A DNA stretch of 64,000 bases from NCBI GenBank assembly GCA_965219385.1, contig CBDCNM010000002.1:4288305-4352304 (forward strand), written 5' to 3'. Under the pieces are notes generated by a model. It was not told the DNA's origin. It searched no databases and saw only the letters and a program-made list of their open reading frames with translations. The position numbers and the translations under genes are program-made. Numbering within the stretch: position 1 is the first letter of the stretch; each line of letters starts with the position of its first letter. This DNA is from Candidatus Latescibacterota bacterium (lineage in GTDB: Bacteria; Latescibacterota; UBA2968; UBA8231). Positions 7,712 through 54,098 of this stretch are shown here, piece by piece.

Positions 7712-8408
7712 TCATCCCTTCTGAATGGCCCAGTGGCCCCGCCTTGGTTGACCAGTGGATCGCCCACGTTGAAGTAGCCTTCCATCCACAGGTGGCTGAG
7801 CAGTGCGCCTTGGTCCATAAACGCACGCACCTCCCCTACATCCGCGACGTATTGTGTTTGCGTGTAGCCTCGCTCGTCGCGCCAGAGAACGCGCACCTCT
7901 TTGGGCTGTAAGGCGTCGAGAAAAAAAGGCGAATGCGTGGTGACCAGTAGCTGGGTGCGCTCGCTGGCTGCGCGGCACTCCTCGGCCAGTTCCACAAGCA
8001 GCCGGGGATGGAGGAAGTTCTCCGGCTCCTCAATGCCGATAAAGGGCGGTGGGGCCGGGTCGTGGAGCAGGACCAAGTAGGTCAGCATTTTGAGCGTACC
8101 GTCGGAGGCGAATCGCGCCAGCACCGGGTGGCTGAACGGGGCGTCCTTGATTTGCAACAGCAGGCGACCGTCGGGCATGGCATCGGCCAGCACCTTCTCA
8201 ATGCGAGGTACGCGCCGGCGCAGCCCCAGCTCGAAGCACTCCGCCAGAAACGCGAACACATCAAAACGGTGGACTTGCCGCTGCCGTTGGGGCCGAGCAG
8301 CACCGTCAGCGGTGTCAGATTTTTGAACTCGACATGCCGTAGGGCGCGGAAATTCTGCACCTTCAGATATTCAATGCGTGCCGGGGTAGTGGGTTGTACA
8401 GTGGTTAA
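7708..8408 (-). pseudogene. ABC/AAA_21-type ATPase; frameshifted, internally deleted, start displaced to 14262 by insertion
   Basis: Walker A GPNGSGKS in one frame; SDGTL signature, Walker B IGIEEPE and TTHSP in another; middle region missing. Confidence 0.85.
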
Positions 8409-9116
8409 GAGCCTATACGAAAATTGATTTCCTATTGATAAACAGGTCTTGGCGCCCTACGCTTTCCTTACATCTGACCCTCAACCAAGAGTCGGTTCCG
8501 CCCGTGGGTCAAACCAGGCGTGTTTCTCCGAGCCTGGCAGACGGTGTTGGACTACGATGATACGCAAGGGGGCATTGCTTGGAAATGGCAAGCCCTCGAT
8601 GGGGTAATTACCAAAGCGCCGTTGGGCGGCGAGGATACCGGTCCGTCGCCGGTAGATCGGGGTAAAAAGGGTACCAAACGGTCGGTATTGACCGACCCGC
8701 GAGGCGCGCCGCTGGCCGTGGAAATAACCGGAGCCCATACGCCCGACAAAACGGGGGCGCTGGCGACGCTGGAGGGCATCGTCGTGGAGCGGCCCGAGAA
8801 AGTCGTCTATCGGCTACATCATCGGTGTTTGGACAAAGGCTATGACTACGCCGAGGTCATCGAAGGGGTCGAGCAACGCGACGATCACCTACACTGGGCC
8901 AAAACTAAAGCAGAAAAAGCCGCTACACCCACCCAAAAGAAACATCCGGCTCGTCGATGGGTGGTGGAAAGAACCCATGCTTGGCACCATCGGTTCCGCC
9001 GGCTGCTGATCCGATGGGAGAAGAAAACTACCCATTACCAAGCATTAATGCACGTAGCTTCTGTGCTTATCATTTTTCGAATCGTCGAACGGTTGACGTG
9101 ATTTTCGTATAGGCTC
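8409..9116 (+). mobile_element. IS5-family element, copy 1 (708 bp; truncated transposase 8520-9101)
   Basis: 16-bp terminal inverted repeats gagcctatacgaaaat; DG..TKAPLGG, DKGYD and RWVVERTH motifs. Confidence 0.92.
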
Positions 9117-10805
9117 TTAGGGACTCTGGCAGTAGCAGCACCCTCTCAAATAGGGATAATTCTTACGCTGTCCTTTATCGTATAACTTGACAGTCCACAT
9201 TGTCTTATCATATGTCCGCAAGGCCAACTGCAAGAGCTTGTCGCGATTGATATAGGCAAGGTCATCTTCTATTGTGAATGTTTCAAGACTATAGTATCTA
9301 CACACCTGCGTTGTGTCTATTCCTACATAGTTTGACGACCCCCAGTGTATTCCTGCATAGTTTGTGTTTGGAGGACCATCTTGCATAATTTGCTTCGAAG
9401 ACTTCGCTTCGTACAACCTTGCCTGATAGTGCAGTCCTTGCCGTGGGCGATTCTCGAGTATGATCTCCAATATATAATCTCCGCGAAGTAAACCTCGGAT
9501 GTTTGAAGCATCTTTTAATGGTAATACATTTTGAACCAGACCACGTCTGCTTATATCGTCAACGATTAAATCCCGAACCTGCTGTTGTACTAGCGATCTT
9601 TGCCTTCCATTCACTTTGTTGGTTGCTCCGGGCAAGATACGAGTGCCTGCTGCTGCCATGTTGGTTATTTTGGCGTCCACCCAGAGAACACCTACTGACT
9701 CATAGGTATCAAGTCTACCCCATCCCGTGTCCGGTTTCGAGATGGCAAAAACGTTTTCATCGAATGAATTGTACCTGACTGGTTGAAGGTGTCCACCATC
9801 CTCAATTTGATGCCACACAAGAGCCCGCCCTTCGAGTTTGTAATCAAGAAAGCGCTTCTCTCGCCACCTATCCCCTACCTGAAACTGCTCCGCGACCAGC
9901 AAGCTGGTTTGAGAGTCAAAGAGCGCTCGGAACGGTGGACTTCCATATTTCATGTCTTCGACAAGTATAACGTGGTGTGACCTACTGTATGGGTTGGTCT
10001 GGAATCCAATGTAAGTAAGCTGCACACCGTCTCCCAGGTAGCGCGATAGAAAATCCCAGCGTTCAGCCCGTCGTTGCACTTCCCGCAACCCTTTGTCTTT
10101 TAGTGGAAATCCTTGACCAAATACGTCGATCCATCCTCTCTCACCATTGTAGACGATACGAGCCCCCCCAGGCAAAAACTCTGCAAATTTACTACGTGTG
10201 CCATAGTTCTTATGAAACCGATCTGAGTAGCTTATATACCGAAGGGAGGTCAACGCATCAAGGCCGCCCATAGCGTCTACTGCCTCCATTACAATATTTA
10301 GGGCATGAGAGCGGCTACGGCTCTCCGCATCATGAATGTCGACATCTGGCAACACCAATCGTTCAAAAGATTCTAGCTCTTCTACCTTCCGCCGAGACAT
10401 CTCCAACAGGTGTTGTTCAAGTGACATTAGCGAGTCTGCAGGAGTCGCAGATACTCTGCCTGTCTTCTTCATGTCAATAAGGTCATCTGACACCAGCAAG
10501 GACTCGGGAAGAGCAGGAACCTCAAGGTGATCTGTGATGTCTTCAGGAACATCCTGCGGTACGTCGATTTCCTCCATGCGCTCCATCTCTACCTCAGGTA
10601 AAGCTTCTGGTGGCGATGATTCTAAACGTTTTGGTCCTACATGTTCAAACTGGTAGCGAACAGGATGCAGGATTCGATCCACCGGATCTTTCGCCCAGCG
10701 TTGGAAGGTGAATAACATCAGCAAGTGAAGGATGCATGAAAGTAGAAAAGCTACTCCGACGCGGCGCCTATCTATCGATTTTCTCTTTGAATGATTGTTA
10801 AACAA
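9117..10805 (-). CDS. Hypothetical N-terminally membrane-anchored protein (transposon cargo)
   Basis: 562-aa ORF, TM segment with SxxLH, visibly lower GC. The stop codon coincides with the TTA at the IS boundary. Confidence 0.7.
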   Translation of the reverse strand: MFNNHSKRKSIDRRRVGVAFLLSCILHLLMLFTFQRWAKDPVDRILHPVRYQFEHVGPKRLESSPPEALPEVEMERMEEIDVPQDVPEDITDHLEVPALPESLLVSDDLIDMKKTGRVSATPADSLMSLEQHLLEMSRRKVEELESFERLVLPDVDIHDAESRSRSHALNIVMEAVDAMGGLDALTSLRYISYSDRFHKNYGTRSKFAEFLPGGARIVYNGERGWIDVFGQGFPLKDKGLREVQRRAERWDFLSRYLGDGVQLTYIGFQTNPYSRSHHVILVEDMKYGSPPFRALFDSQTSLLVAEQFQVGDRWREKRFLDYKLEGRALVWHQIEDGGHLQPVRYNSFDENVFAISKPDTGWGRLDTYESVGVLWVDAKITNMAAAGTRILPGATNKVNGRQRSLVQQQVRDLIVDDISRRGLVQNVLPLKDASNIRGLLRGDYILEIILENRPRQGLHYQARLYEAKSSKQIMQDGPPNTNYAGIHWGSSNYVGIDTTQVCRYYSLETFTIEDDLAYINRDKLLQLALRTYDKTMWTVKLYDKGQRKNYPYLRGCCYCQSP

Positions 10806-12093: not shown

Positions 12094-12801
12094 GAGCCTA
12101 TACGAAAATCACGTCAACCGTTCGACGATTCGAAAAATGATAAGCACAGAAGCTACGTGCATTAATGCTTGGTAATGGGTAGTTTTCTTCTCCCATCGGA
12201 TCAGCAGCCGGCGGAACCGATGGTGCCAAGCATGGGTTCTTTCCACCACCCATCGACGAGCCGGATGTTTCTTTTGGGTGGGTGTAGCGGCTTTTTCTGC
12301 TTTAGTTTTGGCCCAGTGTAGGTGATCGTCGCGTTGCTCGACCCCTTCGATGACCTCGGCGTAGTCATAGCCTTTGTCCAAACACCGATGATGTAGCCGA
12401 TAGACGACTTTCTCGGGCCGCTCCACGACGATGCCCTCCAGCGTCGCCAGCGCCCCCGTTTTGTCGGGCGTATGGGCTCCGGTTATTTCCACGGCCAGCG
12501 GCGCGCCTCGCGGGTCGGTCAATACCGACCGTTTGGTACCCTTTTTACCCCGATCTACCGGCGACGGACCGGTATCCTCGCCGCCCAACGGCGCTTTGGT
12601 AATTACCCCATCGAGGGCTTGCCATTTCCAAGCAATGCCCCCTTGCGTATCATCGTAGTCCAACACCGTCTGCCAGGCTCGGAGAAACACGCCTGGTTTG
12701 ACCCACGGGCGGAACCGACTCTTGGTTGAGGGTCAGATGTAAGGAAAGCGTAGGGCGCCAAGACCTGTTTATCAATAGGAAATCAATTTTCGTATAGGCT
12801 C
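12094..12801 (-). mobile_element. IS5-family element, copy 2 (inverted, apparently identical to copy 1)
   Basis: Same TIRs, same 708-bp length and identical 193-aa translation; flanked by TAA on both sides. Confidence 0.92.
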
Positions 12802-12804
12802 TAA

Positions 12805-14253
12805 GCTCGATTTTATCCAAACGCGCATGGCAGGAGGCCGGTATCCTCCGTACTGTTGATGGTATCCAAGCATCGACAGCCCAGGAGAAACCGATGAGCC
12901 CCCTGCCGAAAGATATAATAACGATTTTGTCGCCCTTTGCCCCCCTTTTTTCGAGCCGCGTTTGGCCGCAGGCTCAGACGCTGTTGGTCGGGGCGCTGTT
13001 AGCCCCGGGTAAACGCACGGTCAGCGCCGTGTTGGAGGTGTTGGGCTTGAGCCAACAGCCTACCTTTCAAACCTACCACCGGATCCTCAACCGCTGTGTG
13101 TGGTCGCCCCTGGCCGGCAGTAAGCTACTCCTCCAGGCGTTGGTGGCCGCCTTTGCCCCCCACGGGCCCCTGGTCCTGGGCCTGGATGAGACCATCGAGC
13201 GGCGCCGGGGCGCCCAGATTGGGGCCCGAGGCATCTACCGGGATCCCGTCCGCTCGAGTGGGCCCCACCTGGTCAAGGCTAGCGGCTTGCGCTGGCTGTC
13301 GTTGATGCTGGTAGCGCCTATCCCTTGGGCGGATCGAAGTTGGGCCTTACCCTTTATGAGTGTGCTGTGTCCGTCGGCCCGCTACTATACTCAGCGCCAG
13401 CGCACCCCCCTCACCCTGTTGCAACGGGGGCAGACTATGCTCAAGCTGGTAGCGCGCTGGCTGCCCACCCGCCGGCTGGTCGTGGTCGCCGATAGCACCT
13501 TCTCCGCCTTGGCCTTTCTCGACGCGGTTCGGCCCCACGTGGGGCTGATTACCCGCTTGCGGTTGGATGCGGCCCTGTATGACCCACCACCAACCCGCAC
13601 GCCGCACACGCGGGGACGCCCCCGCGGCAAAGGCGCCCGGCAGCCCACCCTCCAGCAGCACCTGGACGATCCGACTACCCCTTGGCACCCCCTCACCCTG
13701 GACCGGTGGTATGCCGCCGGCCCCTATACAGTGGAAACCTACAGCCAAACGGCGCTGTGGTATCACACTGGCTTGCCCGCCGTGCCCCTCCGCTGGCTGC
13801 TGATCCGAGACCCGGCCGGCCGCTTCGCGCCCCAAGCCTTGCTCTCGACCGATGTGCGTCTGTCCCCTCGGCAAATGCTGACCTATTTTCTCCAACGCTG
13901 GTCGGTAGAAACTACCTTTGAGGAAGCCCGCGCCCATCTGGGCATGGAAACCCAACGCCAATGGAATGAGCGGGCCATTGCCCGGACCACGCCGGTCATC
14001 TTGGCCTTGTTTAGTCTGGTCGCCCTCATCGCCAATCGGCTGGCCCCCAAAAGCGCCTCCCCCTGCCATGCCACGGCCTGGTATGGCAAACGAAAACCCA
14101 CCTTTTCCGATGCCGTGGCCTGGGTCCGACAACGGCTCTGGCAGGCTTTTTCCAACCTGCCCAACCAACACGACCTGATAAAAATCCCTCGAAGCCTACT
14201 CAACCGCTTGATACACACCGTCTCGTACGCTACATAAATGGATAAAGTCGAGC
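12805..14253 (+). mobile_element. IS701-like element with intact DDE transposase (12894-14237)
   Basis: TIRs gctcga(t/c)tttatcca; TAA (or CTAAG) duplication; LDETIERR, VADS and RWSVETTFEE motifs. Confidence 0.88.
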
Positions 14254-21002: not shown

Positions 21003-21031
21003 TTGACAGATAAGAATCCGCCCCGTATTTT
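21003..21031 (+). promoter_or_regulatory. Candidate sigma70 promoter
   Basis: TTGACA-17bp-TATTTT upstream of hairpin element copy 1. Confidence 0.55.
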
Positions 21032-21081
21032 CGCCCTTCCAGAAAATCAGTACATAACGAAACCGGATGACCCTACCCGGA

Positions 21082-21274
21082 TCGAGGTCGCAAGGGGATG
21101 GGGCCGGCGGCGTTTTGTGGGGGTGGGGGTGGGCGGAACCCGGATCCAGAGGCCCGGCCGCTCTTGGCAGCACGAACTGAGGCAGAAAAAGCGCCAAAAG
21201 GTCTCCCCACCCCTCTTCGGGCGTCACCAAACGCCAGAGGCCCTGTCCCCTTGTGACCAGCCGCCGATTTCGTC
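21082..21274 (+). repeat. Dispersed structured leader element, copy 1
   Basis: Long imperfect stem with GGCGTTTT...AAACGCCAGAGGC core; homologous to the copies at 25368, 25737 and 53860. Confidence 0.8.
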
Positions 21275-21329
21275 AACTACTGAAAATCCCTGGACCAATC
21301 TGAAAAACCGCGCAAGAAACGGAGATATC

Positions 21330-22384
21330 ATGCCTGTTCTGAACGCAGAAAAGCTAGAAAACGCATGCGCCCGCGTCCTGTCTGGCGCCGGCGTAGATCC
21401 CCAGGAAGCGCAGCAGGTAGCCCACTCTCTCCTGCTGGCCAACCTCATGGGCCACGACTCCCACGGCGTCATCCGCCTGATCCAGTACATCGAATACCTG
21501 CGCGACGGCCGTTACAAAGCCGGCCAGCAGATCCAGATCGTGCGCCAGGCCGATGCCTCGGCCGTGGTCGACGGCGGCTATGGATTCGGCCAGACCGTCT
21601 GCCACCAGGCCATGCAACTGGCCATCGAAAAGGCCAGAGCGCGCTCCGTGGGCGTGGTGGAACTGTTCAATAGCAGCCATATCGGCCGCCTGGGGGAGTA
21701 CGTGGAAACAGCCGCCGAACAGGATATGATCGGGATCGTGATGTGCAACAATCACGGGGTCGGCCTGTGGCAGCCCCCCTTCGGCGGTGTGGACCGGCGC
21801 ATGTCGCCCAATCCCCTCGCCGTGGGCATTCCCACCGGCCGGGATTTTCCCATCGTGGTGGACATGACCTCGAGCGTGGTGGCCGAGGGCAAAATCCGGG
21901 TCAAACGCAACCAGGGCGAAAGCATCCCGGAAGGCTGGGCCCTCGACGCCGAGGGCAACCCGACCACCGACCCCGAGGCCTTCTACGGCCCGCCGCGCGG
22001 CGCCATCCTGCCCTTTGGCGGCATTGCCGCCCACAAAGGCTATGCCCTCGGCGTGGTGGTGGACATCCTTTCCGGCGCCCTGGGCGGGGCCGGGTGCAGC
22101 CGCGATCCCGAAGCAAGCGGAGGCCGCAACGGGGTCTTTATCATGGCCATCGACATTGCCGCCTTTACGGGCCGGAACCAGTTCCAGGAGGAGGTGAATG
22201 CCTTTATCGACTTTTTGAAAAGCTCCCGCCTCATGCCGGGCTTCGAGCAAATCTTCCTGCCCGGCGAGATCGAATACCGGATGCGGCGACAAAGAGAACG
22301 CGAAGGACTCGCCATAGACGACGAGACCTGCCGCCAGATCCACCAGGCCGCCCAGACCGTGGGCGTAGAGATCGACCTGGAGAG

Positions 22385-22388
<4 letters not shown>
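21330..22388 (+). CDS. Ldh_2-family (malate/L-lactate dehydrogenase-like) oxidoreductase
   Basis: GHDSHG, HIGRLG, NPLA.G, DMTSS and HKGYAL motifs; GGAGA RBS before the ATG at 21330. Confidence 0.9.
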
Positions 22389-23791: not shown

Positions 23792-24973
23792 TCACTCGGC
23801 GATTCCGCAGAAATGGGCCGCGGTCAAAGCATAGACCCGGGCCGCCCGCTCCATGCGCTCGATCGAGACCCACTCCACATCGGCGTGGGCGGTTTCGTTG
23901 GAGGGACCGTAGTAAAAGGTCGGCACTCCGCTGCCGTTTGCGTAGAGGTTGGCATCCCCCACGATCCGCATACCCACGTACTCGGGCTCCCGTCCGTTCA
24001 CCCGGGCATGCGCCCGGGCTGCCGCCTGCACCGCCGGATCGTCCTGCGGGGTCTCGAAGGGCTCGCGCTCGTGCTCCATGCGCACCTCCAGCTCGAGCTT
24101 ACCTGCCTGCGCCAAGGGCCTGGCCAGTTCCTCGAGCTCGGCCAGGGCATCCGCGGCGGTCTTTCCCGGGGCCCAGCGCAGGGTACCGGTGAGGCTCGAA
24201 TGCAGCGGTGTCCGGTTGAAGTAGTCTCCCGAGTGCACGATCCCCAGGTCGATGCGCTCAGGGCCGGCGAGGGGATGGACCGGGCCGGCGTCCATTTCCT
24301 CCTGGCGCTGGTGGATTCGCCGGATCAGATCGCCCACGTAGCGGAGGGGATTTTCCGCAAAAGGCACATACTGGGTGTGTTGCCCCCCACGGTCGGATTC
24401 CAGCTCCAGGGTGAAGACCATGGAGCCCATGCTCATCACCCACAGCCGGTCCCCCCCCTCTACGATTGCGATCCGGTCGCCCTCCACCCGGCCGCTGTTT
24501 ATATCCTCGATCAGGGCTTGGGGCCCGTCTTTGTGCGCTTCTGGCTCCTCGTGACCTACCACCGCGGTCAGCACCAGATCTCCTTTGAGCCGGACCCCGG
24601 ACCGCAGCAGAGCACGGGCCGCACCCAGCATGGCGGCCATGCCCCCCTTCATGTCCGTACTGCCCCGGCCGTAAATCAAGTCCCCCTCCCGCCGGCAGGG
24701 CCAGCAGTCGCCGATGGGAATGGTATCCAGGTGGCCATTGAGCATCAAATTGGGCCCCGTGCCGCTGCCCTGGATCCGGGCGTAGAGGTTGTTCCGCCCC
24801 GGCGTGACCTCGCGGACATCCACTTCCAGGTCCAGCCCCCGCAATTTATCCTCGAAGCAGCGGCACACCTCCTCTTCGTCCATGGTCACACTCGGGATCT
24901 CCACCAGGTTCATGGCCTGCTCGGCGATCCACTCGCCGTCAATGGCGCTCAAAATGGTTTCAGAATCGTTCAT
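23792..24973 (-). CDS. M20-family metallohydrolase (ArgE/DapE-like)
   Basis: NGHLDT, GRGSTDMKGG, HEE and AHADVE motifs. Confidence 0.9.
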   Translation of the reverse strand: MNDSETILSAIDGEWIAEQAMNLVEIPSVTMDEEEVCRCFEDKLRGLDLEVDVREVTPGRNNLYARIQGSGTGPNLMLNGHLDTIPIGDCWPCRREGDLIYGRGSTDMKGGMAAMLGAARALLRSGVRLKGDLVLTAVVGHEEPEAHKDGPQALIEDINSGRVEGDRIAIVEGGDRLWVMSMGSMVFTLELESDRGGQHTQYVPFAENPLRYVGDLIRRIHQRQEEMDAGPVHPLAGPERIDLGIVHSGDYFNRTPLHSSLTGTLRWAPGKTAADALAELEELARPLAQAGKLELEVRMEHEREPFETPQDDPAVQAAARAHARVNGREPEYVGMRIVGDANLYANGSGVPTFYYGPSNETAHADVEWVSIERMERAARVYALTAAHFCGIAE

Positions 24974-25328: not shown

Positions 25329-25367
25329 CTACAGCAATTTTCAAGAGCCTACCTATTTTCAGCACTG

Positions 25368-25536
25368 CACGGAATCGGCGGTTGGCCGTGCGGGGCTTGT
25401 GCCTCTGGCGTTTTACGATGCCCAGGGCGCTCTTACCCCCTTCCACTCCCCCAGGCAGGCCTGAGTCCCAGAGCCCCCTTTTCCCCGCTCCACCCCCCCA
25501 TAAAACGCCGACGGCAAAATCCCCTCCCGCCCTTGA
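25368..25536 (-). repeat. Dispersed structured leader element, copy 2
   Basis: Near-identical to 53860-54030. Confidence 0.9.
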
Positions 25537-25672
25537 GGGCCAAATAGCTACGGGTATTCCGTGAAGTACTGATTTCCGCCGAAGAGCTTGGGCTTGACTT
25601 GATTTCACTGCTCCATTGATAAAGATATAGCAAATCTCGCGGTCCAGATCGCGGACAAAATGGCTCGACAGG

Positions 25673-25701
25673 TTGCCAGCAATAAAGAGCCCCTTTATAC
25701 T
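25673..25701 (+). promoter_or_regulatory. Candidate sigma70 promoter
   Basis: TTGCCA-17bp-TATACT upstream of element copy 3. Confidence 0.6.
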
Positions 25702-25736
25702 ATCAATACATGACGAAACCGAGTGACCCCACAGGC

Positions 25737-25928
25737 TCGAGGCCGGAAGGGAATGCTGCCGGAGGCGTTTTATGCCGAGTGGGGCGCGGGGCGGAATAGA
25801 CCAAGGAGCCCAGCCGATTTTCGGGGTGTCCCCTGAGGCGAGCCCGCCCACCACAAAAAGGTCACTCCACCAGCTGGGCGCCTCGTGAAACGCCAGAGGC
25901 AGCATCCCTTTCGGCCGTCCGCCAATCC
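25737..25928 (+). repeat. Dispersed structured leader element, copy 3
   Basis: Same core motifs; ends immediately before the AGGAG RBS of the PhyH gene. Confidence 0.8.
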
Positions 25929-25939
25929 AGGAGTACGAC

Positions 25940-26737
25940 ATGCTGGCCGACGAACAAAAGAATTTCTTCAAAACCTTTGGTTTCCTGGTCCTGCGCCAGG
26001 TATTCACCCCCCAGGAAATAGACCAGATCCGCCACGAATCCGACCGCATCCTGCTGGAAAACCGGCAGGGCAGGCCCTTCCCGGGCACCAAGCGCCAGGC
26101 CATGATCCCCTTCTTCGAGCACAGCCCCGCGCTCTTGTGGCTGCTCGAGGACGACCGCATCTACCAGCTGGGCATCGATTTGCTGGGCCCCAACTTTATC
26201 CTCAACGCCACCGAGGGCAACCTGCACGTGGGCGATACCCAGTGGCACGGCGGTGGTCCCGAAGCCGAAGTCGTGCCCCACATCAAGATCGCCTTCTATC
26301 TCGAGCCGACCACCAAAGACACCGGGGCCCTGCGCCTCATCCCCGGCTCCAACTACCCGGAAATCAGGCAGCACCTGCAGCCGCTGACGGCCCAGAACGA
26401 CGATCCGAGCGCGAAACCCTTCGGGGTCTCCGGCGCGGAAATCCCCTGCCAGGCCTTCGAATCCAAGCCCGGCGATATCGGCATATTCTCGGAGTACACC
26501 TGGCACGCGGCCTTTGGTGGGGCCCCGGGACGCTCCCAGCACGCCATCAACTTCATCGCCAATCCGGAGACCGACGAGCAGGTCGCTCATATCCGCGGTC
26601 TGTATGAAAATTGGCTCTATTCACTGCATCCTCTGGAGGTGTTGATCAACAGCGATCGGCCCCGACTCAGGGGCATGGTCGAAAAGCTGGTGGAGATGGG
26701 CTTCGAACCACCTCTACCCACCCCCATCTTCACCTAA
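25940..26737 (+). CDS. PhyH-family Fe(II)/2-oxoglutarate enzyme with HxG in place of HxD
   Basis: F.TFGFLVLR, QWHGGG, GALRLIPGSN, PGDI..F and WHA motifs. Confidence 0.85.
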   Translation: MLADEQKNFFKTFGFLVLRQVFTPQEIDQIRHESDRILLENRQGRPFPGTKRQAMIPFFEHSPALLWLLEDDRIYQLGIDLLGPNFILNATEGNLHVGDTQWHGGGPEAEVVPHIKIAFYLEPTTKDTGALRLIPGSNYPEIRQHLQPLTAQNDDPSAKPFGVSGAEIPCQAFESKPGDIGIFSEYTWHAAFGGAPGRSQHAINFIANPETDEQVAHIRGLYENWLYSLHPLEVLINSDRPRLRGMVEKLVEMGFEPPLPTPIFT

Positions 26738-51650: not shown

Positions 51651-53822
51651 TCAGCCATCCTCGCAATGAACGACGCATACCTCGCCTGACGACATCTCCA
51701 GTTGAAAGGCCCCGTCGCTCAGATCGAGTTCTTGTTCTTGCAGCAGATCGCGGGCGGCTTTGATGCCCCAGCGCGGTTTCACCTGCGCGTTTGCGGTGCT
51801 GTCCTCCAGGTTGAGGAGAAAGACCAGAGAACCGCCCTGCTTGGAAAAGCGGCGGAAGGCGACGACGCGGTTGCCGGCGATCTCGAACCACGAATCCACC
51901 CCTGCACCCTCTATCAGCGCCAACGCGACATCGTCGTGCACCAGCTCCACCGGCGCGGGCGACCCGGGCTGGCCGGTCACGTTCGAAAACGACGTGGCCG
52001 CCAGGGTAAACCCGAACCAGGTGAAGCGCCCATCCGCCGACTGCACGCCCACCACGTCGTCTCCAAGAGTGGCGCTGGGCCTGGTGTCGCCGCGCGGCTC
52101 CAGGATCGAGTAGGTGGTTGAGGAGGAGACCTCGAACTGGCCGCACTCCATCTTTAAAATGTTCCTGCCGGCCCGCACATCAAAATCATTGACCACGTCG
52201 AAGTCGGCGATGCGACACTCGATCAGGTCGTCGAGGCCTTCGGGCGGCTTGTAGCTCCAGTGGCCCTTGCCGGCGAAGGTGGCGAAGTAGCCGTCGGCGA
52301 CCAGGTGCGGCCCGTCCGCTTGCTCGAGCAGGCCGCGCAAGCGGGTAAGGGCCGCGGCATCCAGCGCTGCGAAGTTGGGCAGGTACACCAGCTTATAGTG
52401 CGACCAGTCCATGGCGGGGGTCACCAGGTCCATGGCCACGCTGTGGGGCCACAGGGCGCGGTACAGGGCGCGGTGCCGCTGGATGAACCTGGTGCCCATG
52501 CCGTTGAAATCGAACAGGTTCTCGCTCGGCCCACTGTAGGCGATGGCCAATTCGGCGGGCGGAATCGAAAGGGGTAGATGGGGCGCAAGCTCGTCGATCT
52601 GGGCGATGACCTTCTCGGCGGCCCGCAAGCGCACGGTCGGCTCGCCGTCCAGGGCCGCGATGTTCAGGCCGGGGGCCTCAAAGGTCATGTACTCCGGCCG
52701 GTACTGCCAGAACATGGCGCCGGCCCCGCCTTCGATCAGGGTCAGCCAGACGTACAGGGCCGACTCCTCGCCCAGGGTCATCTTTTCGCTCGGCTGCAAG
52801 CCGCCGACGAAGCTGCCGTAAATCTCCTCGTTCCACCAGCGGTTGTCTCGCCCCATGGCGCGGCACCATTGAAAGCCGTAGGCTTCGCAGGCAATGCTGT
52901 AAGGTTCGTCGGTCGTCAGCCGGTTGGCCGAGTGGTGCGACAGGCCCCAGCTGTCGACCTGCGGGCTGACGGTCTCGTGGTGGGGGGCCGGGTACGAGCC
53001 GCCGTGAGAACGCTGCTCGTGTTTGCCGTCGAGGCGGTCGACCAAGTCGGCCATCCAGCCCAGGTGGTCGGCCATGTTTTCGTAGTGGAACTGGAGGTAG
53101 AGGCGCATCTCCACCAGCGCCTCTTTGCTGCGCGGGGCGTCGACATCCTCCCACGAGCGATAGCGGCGGAGCAGATACTGGTTGAGTTCATCCAGGGTGT
53201 AGCGCTGGTAAAGCCAGTCCTTGTACTTGGCGATGGTGTAATCGTTGTAAGGTGGATACGGCTCGGGAGCGGTCCAGGCGCTCGCCAGGCCAATGCCGTC
53301 CCAGGTGCCCCAGATGCCCATGGCTTCGTGGTCTTTGTAGCGCGGCACCAGCTGGCGGATGTAGCGTTCGACGTAGACCCGCCACCTGGGGTGGTCGAAA
53401 TTGTGGGTCATGGATCCGTGCGGCGCGAAGGCGCCGGCCCTGTCCTGCTGCACGCTGCCGTCGCGCCACACCACCCGCATGTCCGGGTGCTGGCGCAGCA
53501 TCCAGGCCGGGCAGGCCATGTGGGTGCCCAGGGGGGCATCGATCCAGACCTTCAAGCCGTGTTTGGCGGCCAGGTCGAAGAGCAGGTCCAGGTCGTCGAA
53601 CTCGTAGCGATTCGGCAGGGTCTCGACCCAGTTCCAGCTGTACCAGACGCGGATGAGACTCATGCCGATAGCGCTGATGCGGCGAAAGTCCTCATCCCAG
53701 AACTGGGGCGGCGGCGCCGGCGGGCGGTAGTATTCCGTGCCCACGGGGAAGGGCCTGGCGAAGATGGCGGAAAGGTCTTTTTTGTGGCTGCGCAGTTGCA
53801 TCCAGGTGCTGTCTGGGCCCAT
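51651..53822 (-). CDS. GH42-like (beta-galactosidase family) protein with trimerisation-like domain
   Basis: GTEYY, W..D...I...G...IR, WNWVE...Y.FD.LD, P.W....PD and FWQYR motifs. Confidence 0.75.
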   Translation of the reverse strand: MGPDSTWMQLRSHKKDLSAIFARPFPVGTEYYRPPAPPPQFWDEDFRRISAIGMSLIRVWYSWNWVETLPNRYEFDDLDLLFDLAAKHGLKVWIDAPLGTHMACPAWMLRQHPDMRVVWRDGSVQQDRAGAFAPHGSMTHNFDHPRWRVYVERYIRQLVPRYKDHEAMGIWGTWDGIGLASAWTAPEPYPPYNDYTIAKYKDWLYQRYTLDELNQYLLRRYRSWEDVDAPRSKEALVEMRLYLQFHYENMADHLGWMADLVDRLDGKHEQRSHGGSYPAPHHETVSPQVDSWGLSHHSANRLTTDEPYSIACEAYGFQWCRAMGRDNRWWNEEIYGSFVGGLQPSEKMTLGEESALYVWLTLIEGGAGAMFWQYRPEYMTFEAPGLNIAALDGEPTVRLRAAEKVIAQIDELAPHLPLSIPPAELAIAYSGPSENLFDFNGMGTRFIQRHRALYRALWPHSVAMDLVTPAMDWSHYKLVYLPNFAALDAAALTRLRGLLEQADGPHLVADGYFATFAGKGHWSYKPPEGLDDLIECRIADFDVVNDFDVRAGRNILKMECGQFEVSSSTTYSILEPRGDTRPSATLGDDVVGVQSADGRFTWFGFTLAATSFSNVTGQPGSPAPVELVHDDVALALIEGAGVDSWFEIAGNRVVAFRRFSKQGGSLVFLLNLEDSTANAQVKPRWGIKAARDLLQEQELDLSDGAFQLEMSSGEVCVVHCEDG

Positions 53823-53859
53823 GTTCGCGTTCTTGTTGTGGGTGGTGCTTGGAGAACTT

Positions 53860-54030
53860 CACGGAATCGGTGGGTGGGGCCGTGCGGGGCTTGTGCCTCT
53901 GGCGTTTTATGATGTCCAAGGCGCTCTTGCCCCTCGCTACCCCCCCAGGCAGGCCTGAGTCCCAGAGCCCCCTTTTTCCCTGCTCCACCCCCCCATAAAA
54001 CGCCGACGGCAAAATCCCCTCCCGGCCTCC
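53860..54030 (-). repeat. Dispersed structured leader element, copy 4
   Basis: Near-identical to 25368-25536; ends about 37 nt upstream of the GH42-like start. Confidence 0.9.
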
Positions 54031-54098
54031 GGAGTATTGTCCGTCTGTGAACCGCTCAAAGCCCGCATAAAGGAAGGCTCTCTATGAACGATTTTCAA

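Follow-up and report, generated by a model that had tools for sequence, protein, structure and literature searches.

Leader hairpins of a Latescibacterota bacterium as probable parts of an ISH3-type MITE

Four hairpins and the family they belong to

The window, the whole 64,000-nucleotide stretch of a Candidatus Latescibacterota genome analysed here, carries four related hairpin elements, each pointing at the next gene (of the Ldh_2, M20, PhyH and GH42 families, respectively; Table 1). They lie where an earlier sequence-only reading had put them, and that reading was also borne out in the invariance of AAACGCCAGAGGC and GGCGTTTT among the four copies, in the close likeness of copies 2 and 4 (about 90% identity), in the stable folding of copies 1 and 3 (z -4.0 and -3.1) and in the outer stems of these two, which differ in sequence and keep their pairing. 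Across the alignment of the four, GGCGTTT is invariant together with AAACGCCAGAGGC. The extents originally given locate the hairpins correctly, but the real unit is longer and is framed by terminal inverted repeats (TIRs) and a target site duplication (TSD) that had been overlooked; the upstream 'atcagtacat..acgaaaccg' noticed in copies 1 and 3 is likewise real, but it is the left TIR. Sigma70-like promoters had been claimed for three copies, and two of the four pass a promoter scan. Copy 2, said to precede an esterase fragment and M20, does point at the M20 gene, but at a distance and across a 37-aa ORF without a Pfam match. To judge from its letters, the decayed right TIR of copy 3 (25929-25939) likely serves as the PhyH ribosome-binding site.

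Table 1. Coordinates of the window copies, their neighbours and related elements elsewhere (positions refer to the window; G and L handles denote other genomes and loci)
Feature	Position	Strand	Remarks
Sigma70-like promoter TTGACA-17-TATTTT	21003..21031	+	16 nt 5' of copy 1; consensus match only
Copy 1, left TSD AAAAT	21043..21047	+	
Copy 1, full MITE, subfamily B, 235 bp	21048..21282	+	TIR pair and exact 5-bp TSD
Copy 1, left TIR (CAGTACATAACGAAAC)	21048..21063	+	near-identical to the ends of the ISH3-type IS L349
Copy 1, internal hairpin	21086..21258	+	outer stem, 3x3 loop GGC/AGA, central stem, G-rich loop
Copy 1, right TIR	21267..21282	-	
Copy 1, right TSD AAAAT	21283..21287	+	
Ldh_2-family gene	21330..22388	+	after copy 1
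M20 peptidase gene	23792..24973	-	385 nt after copy 2
Copy 2, full MITE, subfamily A, 212 bp	25360..25571	-	TSD GAAAT/AAAAT (4/5)
Sigma70-like promoter TTGCCA-17-TATACT	25673..25701	+	2 nt 5' of copy 3; consensus match only
Copy 3, MITE, subfamily B	25704..25938	+	decayed right TIR
AGGAG in the decayed right TIR of copy 3	25929..25933	+	6 nt 5' of the PhyH start codon
PhyH gene	25940..26737	+	after copy 3
GH42 gene	51651..53801	-	after copy 4
Copy 4, subfamily A	about 53852..54033	-	left TIR lost, right TIR partly decayed
ISH3-TIR MITEs with other cargos	L169, L207-L209 (G020); L176, L210 (G089); L126, L113, L095, L094; L192-L197 (G153)		

Four sponge metatranscriptome runs of one study contain contigs that match 21142-21327 (X1), 25749-25951 (X1) and 25749-25900 (X2) exactly; these contigs over copies 1 and 3 have a depth of 3-7, give neither strand nor ends and may include DNA carry-over. 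The Ldh_2 gene is mostly uncovered by RNA contigs. An IS701-like element with about 36 copies in the genome is represented once in the window (12894-14237, plus strand), alongside two IS5-type copies (8400-9130 and 12100-12700); matches to DDE_Tnp_1 in this genome number at least 150.

A profile built from the four window copies finds 111 matches genome-wide, and the invariant 13-mer occurs 50 times. Merging the profile matches with solo ends gives 136 family loci, some of which span only 22-24 nt and are less certain. All are intergenic and non-coding, and none of the 136 interrupts a called gene. The ends are 16-bp TIRs (CAGTACTTCACGRAAT), paired in 48 cases, with 46 of the pairs spanning 36-292 bp and the remaining two, long pairs, surrounding ordinary genes. 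A 5-bp TSD is exact in 21 of the 46 paired copies and agrees at four of five bases in 13 more, while exact flanking repeats of 3, 4 or 6-10 bp occur in 0-1 of the 46 and those of 2 bp in five. The TSD follows the pattern A-N-N-N-T, with A at -5 in 41/46 and T at -1 in 43/46 on the left side, and A in 39/46 and T in 37/46 on the right. Copies within this genome are at most 96% identical, and no replichore bias is visible by eye. A 35-bp repeat lying about 95 bp from one family copy was considered and set aside as a different repeat. A second MITE family (C1:1131518-1131665 and C2:11129-11276 of the studied genome, G000, and about nine more copies) measures 148-149 bp, with the TIR CAATAGTTCGGACACTTTTT and a 4-6 bp AT-rich TSD; one of its copies abuts a copy of the family studied here.

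Ends of the ISH3 type around unrelated interiors

ISH3 insertion sequences are described as having CRGT ends and a 5-bp direct repeat whose terminal bases are A and T, and their transposase carries a Y-2-R-3-E-3-R motif (De Palmenaer 2008, PMC2266710); a 5-bp TSD is given as typical of the family elsewhere (PMC7002104). The CAGT end of the MITE fits the CRGT rule (PMC2266710, table), and the ends of ISH51 and ISH27-3 each agree with it at 12 of 16 positions. A closer relative is found in another bacterium, where L346 is a complete 1307-bp IS with ends matching the MITE TIR at 16/16 and 15/16 positions and an exact TSD (ATACT). Its 402-aa transposase carries the motif (YRRRFGIESGYR), and the sole NCBIfam match of the protein is ISH3 (NF033541), full-length, at 197 bits and thus below the cut-off of 225. 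A search with NF033541 of 251 genomes of the class of genome G168 gave a match in 23. Among the 28 loci examined, L345, L347, L348 and L349 have ends that agree at 13-14 of 16 positions, and those of the others besides L346 agree at 8-12. The 2008 account calls the family archaeal (PMC2266710), whereas the MITE here is bacterial.

The four hairpins are thus almost certainly parts of copies of one ISH3-type MITE. This makes the second option of the sequence-only reading, a leader-associated MITE, the right one, now specified by TIR, TSD and autonomous relatives. An ISH3 transposase was not found in this assembly (94% complete), where the best profile score is 20 bits and tblastn with six ISH3-locus proteins gives no match, nor in 40 relatives searched with the L146 protein; a transposase in the same genome is not required of a MITE. 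Within the phylum, genome G031 has one ISH3-type gene locus with 11/16 ends; there L146 (G031:C260) holds two tandem ISH3-like transposase genes that share ends. None of the multi-copy IS of the studied genome has CAGTAC ends, and they were rejected as mobilisers.

The same TIR with exact TSDs surrounds unrelated interiors in G153, G020 and G089, at several Chloroflexi loci and in one Latescibacterota record (Table 1). Since the same TIRs enclose unrelated interiors, the mobile unit is the ends and not the interior. One wrapper holds many cargos, the MITEs with ISH3-type TIRs having differing internal palindromes or short repeats, and several of these palindromes we take to be REP-like. An IS1182-like partner, a DUF772 transposase inside a TIR pair at L191, was considered as well. 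It is an independent IS, bounded by ends of its own and sitting inside a G153 MITE, and the TIR pair is present at 0 of 11 homologous loci. The nesting there has three levels (L191:533-2733), with the IS1182-like IS inside an ISH3-type MITE and itself split by a small element; the element that splits the transposase resembles the second MITE family. A pattern scan of genome contigs gave 114 matches, mostly by chance, of which 15 have a partner end of at least 12/16 and about seven are convincing. A pattern scan of metagenomes for the MITE gave 0 matches, and blastn against plasmids gave two, both by chance.

Several features of the family have precedents. Co-transcribed, folded and orientation-dependent MITEs, covarying REPIN arms and polar G4 repeats are described in the literature (also PMC13343696, PMC7736831). 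ISH3 elements (ISH51, ISH27, ISH3B) share the CAGT ends, the 16-bp TIR and the 5-bp A..T duplication (PMC2266710), but the MITE here is non-coding, spans 36-292 bp, carries a hairpin cargo and has no partner found in the assembly. The Correia/nemis, ERIC, RUP and BOX MITEs are likewise reported as intergenic, TIR/TSD-bearing, co-transcribed and folded, some of them upstream of genes and with orientation-dependent effects on mRNA (PMC10969869, PMC3184786, PMC3049150); here, in contrast, the mobiliser is another, no internal promoter was found and what folds is not the TIRs but an internal rod, whose G-rich loops are asymmetric and conserved. REPINs are described with a long hairpin and copy-specific compensatory changes in its arms (Bertels and Rainey 2011, PMC3116915), whereas the element here is asymmetric, with DDE-type TIRs, a TSD and no adjacent RAYT gene. 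The GGGAATC/GGGGAYT repeats of Xanthomonas and Nostoc are also intergenic G-tracts polar toward neighbouring genes, but are described as simple heptamer arrays that near starts lie mostly on the non-coding strand (PMC4692102); in the present family the coding strand is the G-rich one, and the tracts are divided between the two sides of a duplex. Neisseria REP2 is a repeated structured 5' leader ahead of many genes, with a promoter, RBS and ATG and no TIR (PMC3184786), whereas here the promoter lies outside and an RBS-like motif is present only in copy 3. The main texts of two MITE surveys, as far as consulted, do not mention ISH3 (PMC11602168, PMC10969869), and a literature search confined to main texts outside subscription journals listed no paper devoted to the family or to MITEs of the ISH3 kind in bacteria.

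Structure and conservation of the hairpin

The full layout of the hairpin is an outer stem, a 3x3 loop, a stem, an asymmetric G-rich loop, a further stem, a second such loop and a terminal hairpin. It recurs in G103, G013, G016 and G018 and, less completely, in G141 and G003; the second G-rich loop is absent from window copies 1 and 3. By blastn among 30 relatives, homologues were found in G003 and G004, and a covariance model, with 21 candidates scored per genome, matches in seven of the 75 other family genomes examined and in none of 56 from outside the family. As the sequence-only reading held, no known riboswitch is recognised, the window and eight homolog loci having no Rfam 15 match at the gathering score and only generic hairpins among matches by E-value. 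In G103, about three hairpin cores stand in tandem directly before a gene with a clear RBS (L277/L285, G103:C3:5926787-5927200).

Most of the comparative evidence comes from G004, where, of 210 candidates, 40 were scored and 30 with both anchors, picked by core similarity, were analysed. No two of these copies are more than 87% identical, and their TIRs are unclear, with remnants in G003 and a few G004 copies. The outer 20 bp make 15.6 of 20 Watson-Crick pairs with the copy's own arm and 10.6 with the arms of other copies. A structure alignment of 29 G004 copies (L262, out of register, was excluded) and the four window copies was scored against a structure of 56 pairs, with 90.1% of cells paired against 79.7% after shuffling and 40-50% after sliding, and with double changes at 33 of the 56 pairs against 19 after shuffling; since the copies share ancestry and themselves supplied the structure, these figures do not amount to a probability.

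Selection for structure on the transcribed strand, as proposed from the sequence, is supported for the core, with its covariation and near-invariant G-U pairs (32/33 at columns 44/167, and 28/33), but not for the outer stem, which has no sense-strand excess of G-U: its isolated mismatches are A-C in ten cases, G-U in five and others in three. The 3x3 loop is never closed (29/29). When G004 copies are compared with one another, identity falls to 0.42 in the distal stem and to 0.40-0.46 in the loop spacers, against 0.90-0.97 in the core helices and the short GGGA strand. In the studied genome the hairpin is often incomplete: among the 46 paired copies, both arms of the central stem are present in 14, the 3' arm only in 18, the 5' arm only in one and neither in 13, and even in the young subfamily A the outer stem is imperfect. 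About 60 nt 5' of the G004 core lies a conserved TTGAMC-17-CATAYG; of the 20 copies that bear the hexamer, 17 have this segment end 4-7 nt short of the first base of the stem. As an internal sigma70 promoter it was rejected, CATAYG following 0 of 1092 -35-like hexamers upstream of genes in G000.

Each G-rich loop sets a short GGG strand opposite a long strand of G-tracts with free spacers. The tracts are fixed in 26-29 of 29 G004 copies around free 2-nt spacers, and the short-strand GGG is kept across genera. Four G3 tracts are available in 22/29 copies for loop 2 and in 11/29 for loop 1, a count that includes Gs that could pair in helices. Of the clusters with a G4Hunter score of at least 2, 40/408 overlap the family, which makes up 0.3% of the genome. 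Such loops are predicted to be capable of G-quadruplex formation. The quadruplex mode of ViennaRNA places a G4 in 14 of 33 minimum-energy folds, the split arrangement being beyond that mode. RNA quadruplexes are reportedly depleted in bacteria, as a 2016 title by Guo and Bartel has it.

Orientation relative to genes and competing explanations

Gene context was taken from hexamer-based gene calls (4494 genes). By gap, the 136 loci are divided into 50 divergent, 45 tandem sense, 24 convergent and 17 tandem antisense. The claim that the element is always sense-oriented in a 5' leader thus fails genome-wide, where 95/136 have a sense gene downstream and 41/136 face the 3' end of a gene. A bias is nevertheless present. 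Within 100 nt, the sense end has a start codon in 71 cases and the antisense end in 16, and in divergent gaps 37 of 50 loci are closer to the gene they point toward. Consensus promoters (the pattern of this genome being TTGACA-17-TANNNT, 102/293) read into the element in 15 sense and one antisense case, the -10 box ending 0-24 nt before the left end in 13 of the 15. Core-less short copies (loci below 100 bp) are also skewed, with 23 against 7 in tandem gaps. The IS701-like element has a tandem-gap skew of 15:5, and two IS5-type elements have 12:6 and 1:6; given the similar skew of the IS701-like element, part of the bias may be generic. That the TSD might be the -10 box itself was rejected, the hexamer being flush with the TSD in 18/65 cases and at 646/3000 control sites. 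In G004, genes were placed by tblastn, and of 30 copies 14 lie before a sense gene, ten face a 3' end and six are unplaced.

The sense strand is G-rich (79 G and 56 C per 212 nt over 31 copies) and folds with a mean energy of -93 kcal/mol, against -86 for the antisense strand, the sense being better in 25/31 copies. Of the 39 genes after long sense copies 35 were scanned at the protein level; three more are window genes. Pfam matches were obtained for 29 of the 35, in unrelated families including AccA, NDK, RelA/SpoT, signal peptidase, carbamoyltransferase, GcvT, CcmE and two PhyH, and the want of a common function rules out a ligand regulon. Together with the loci at gene 3' ends and the loss of one or both stem arms in 32/46 paired copies, this tells against the other option of the sequence-only reading, a new cis-regulatory RNA with a riboswitch-like regulon. 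Conserved internal loops and the metabolic genes behind the window copies would speak for a metabolite-sensing riboswitch class, which is nonetheless very improbable in view of the unrelated neighbours, the lack of an Rfam match, the TIR/TSD anatomy, the frequent deletions and the promoter scans of the window copies, in which no expression platform was seen.

The account we favour, and consider moderately probable as a whole, is that of a passenger MITE with ISH3-type ends and an older hairpin cargo, whose C-rich strand is likely purged from leaders. An ISH3 transposase acting in trans likely spread the MITE into AT-rich A-N-N-N-T sites next to promoters or to the ends of genes, and AT-rich targeting in a genome of 60% GC would put copies at or just past -10/TSS regions. 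In sense, the G-rich strand would close into a rod ending 10-50 nt before the ribosome-binding site and be tolerated. Rho prefers C-rich RNA, and a rho gene is present in this genome. The antisense strand would expose C-rich loops that may load Rho or otherwise block read-through, so that such insertions would be purged from leaders and survive behind stop codons. The cargo may now be decaying in this genome, its core loops probably being kept by selection at the level of host or element. Copying from one arm to the other in the DNA, through template switching as it occurs at quasi-palindromes (PMC3820800), probably maintains the pairing of the outer stem, and the strand-neutral mismatches of this stem fit such a process. 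Against the passenger account stand the lack of an ISH3 transposase in this assembly and in the 40 relatives, the sub-cut-off score of L346, the skew of the IS701-like element and the -10 hexamer that is not enriched flush with the TSD; its purge step is also weakened by the good folding of the antisense strand. A pure passenger would moreover leave unexplained both the contrast between core (90-97%) and spacers or distal stem (40-46%) in G004 and the common fold in seven other genera.

Another reading, which we judge unlikely, is that of a domesticated structured leader with the MITE as mere deliverer. A two-junction quadruplex-duplex RNA rod, structurally conserved in at least eight genera of one family, would have been seeded into dozens of unrelated 5' leaders and kept there as an all-purpose modulator of mRNA stability or read-through, each junction combining three G-tracts of the long loop strand with one GGG of the short strand and responding, for example, to K+ or a binding protein. 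The covariation, the invariant G-U pair, the open 3x3 loop, the fixed G-tracts with their cross-genus GGG, the share of strong G4Hunter clusters and the RNA contigs over copies 1 and 3 are consistent with it, and the G004 copies, so dissimilar and without clear TIRs, appear old and in place. However, these copies were chosen by core similarity (30 of 210), the helices require some of the counted Gs, loop 2 is missing from copies 1 and 3, most paired copies here have a broken stem, 10 of the 24 placeable G004 copies face a gene 3' end, the neighbours are unrelated and the RNA contigs are of low depth, strandless and from one study. Could the constraint on the hairpin instead be element-level, the hairpin being an old REPIN-like replicator that an HUH enzyme mobilised in the form of folded single-stranded DNA and that the ISH3 MITE captured once? 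REPIN spacers are reported to covary likewise (PMC3116915), other MITEs of the same TIR carry REP-like palindromes, the outer-stem mismatches are strand-neutral and G103 has the tandem triple copy. This is nonetheless quite improbable: the RAYT/IS200 lead came to nothing, no family copy lying within 3 kb of the five Y1_Tnp genes above cut-off and only one sub-cut-off fragment lying 330 bp from a copy; the element lacks the symmetry of a REP doublet, and the TIR remnants in G003 and a few G004 copies indicate that the ISH3 wrapper is old. In the studied genome, one divergent gap, flanked by rho and a carbamoyltransferase gene (G000 C2:1263396-1264655), contains both a copy of the family and a fragment of a broken Y1 transposase. 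Polarity, finally, might arise at insertion, through a transposase coupled to open promoter complexes, and not by later selection. The position of the -10 boxes just before the left end and the skew of the core-less copies favour such a coupling, but the target pattern is symmetric, 41/136 loci face gene ends and the short copies may be post-insertion deletions, and we regard it as decidedly unlikely.

The movement of the MITE is ordinary and its structurally constrained, G-rich cargo is unusual. The minimum yield is a bacterial ISH3-type MITE class in which one TIR holds many unrelated hairpin cargos in two phyla. It is also a trap for motif finders, as strong covariation and a leader position can stem from a transposon. 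At the same time the family offers a rare natural data set, in which a stem drifts yet stays paired while the adjacent loops are frozen, and which separates the copying of DNA arms from selection on RNA. If the G-tract loops do fold as quadruplex-duplex junctions in RNA, they would be a natural bacterial counterpart of folds obtained as selected aptamers.
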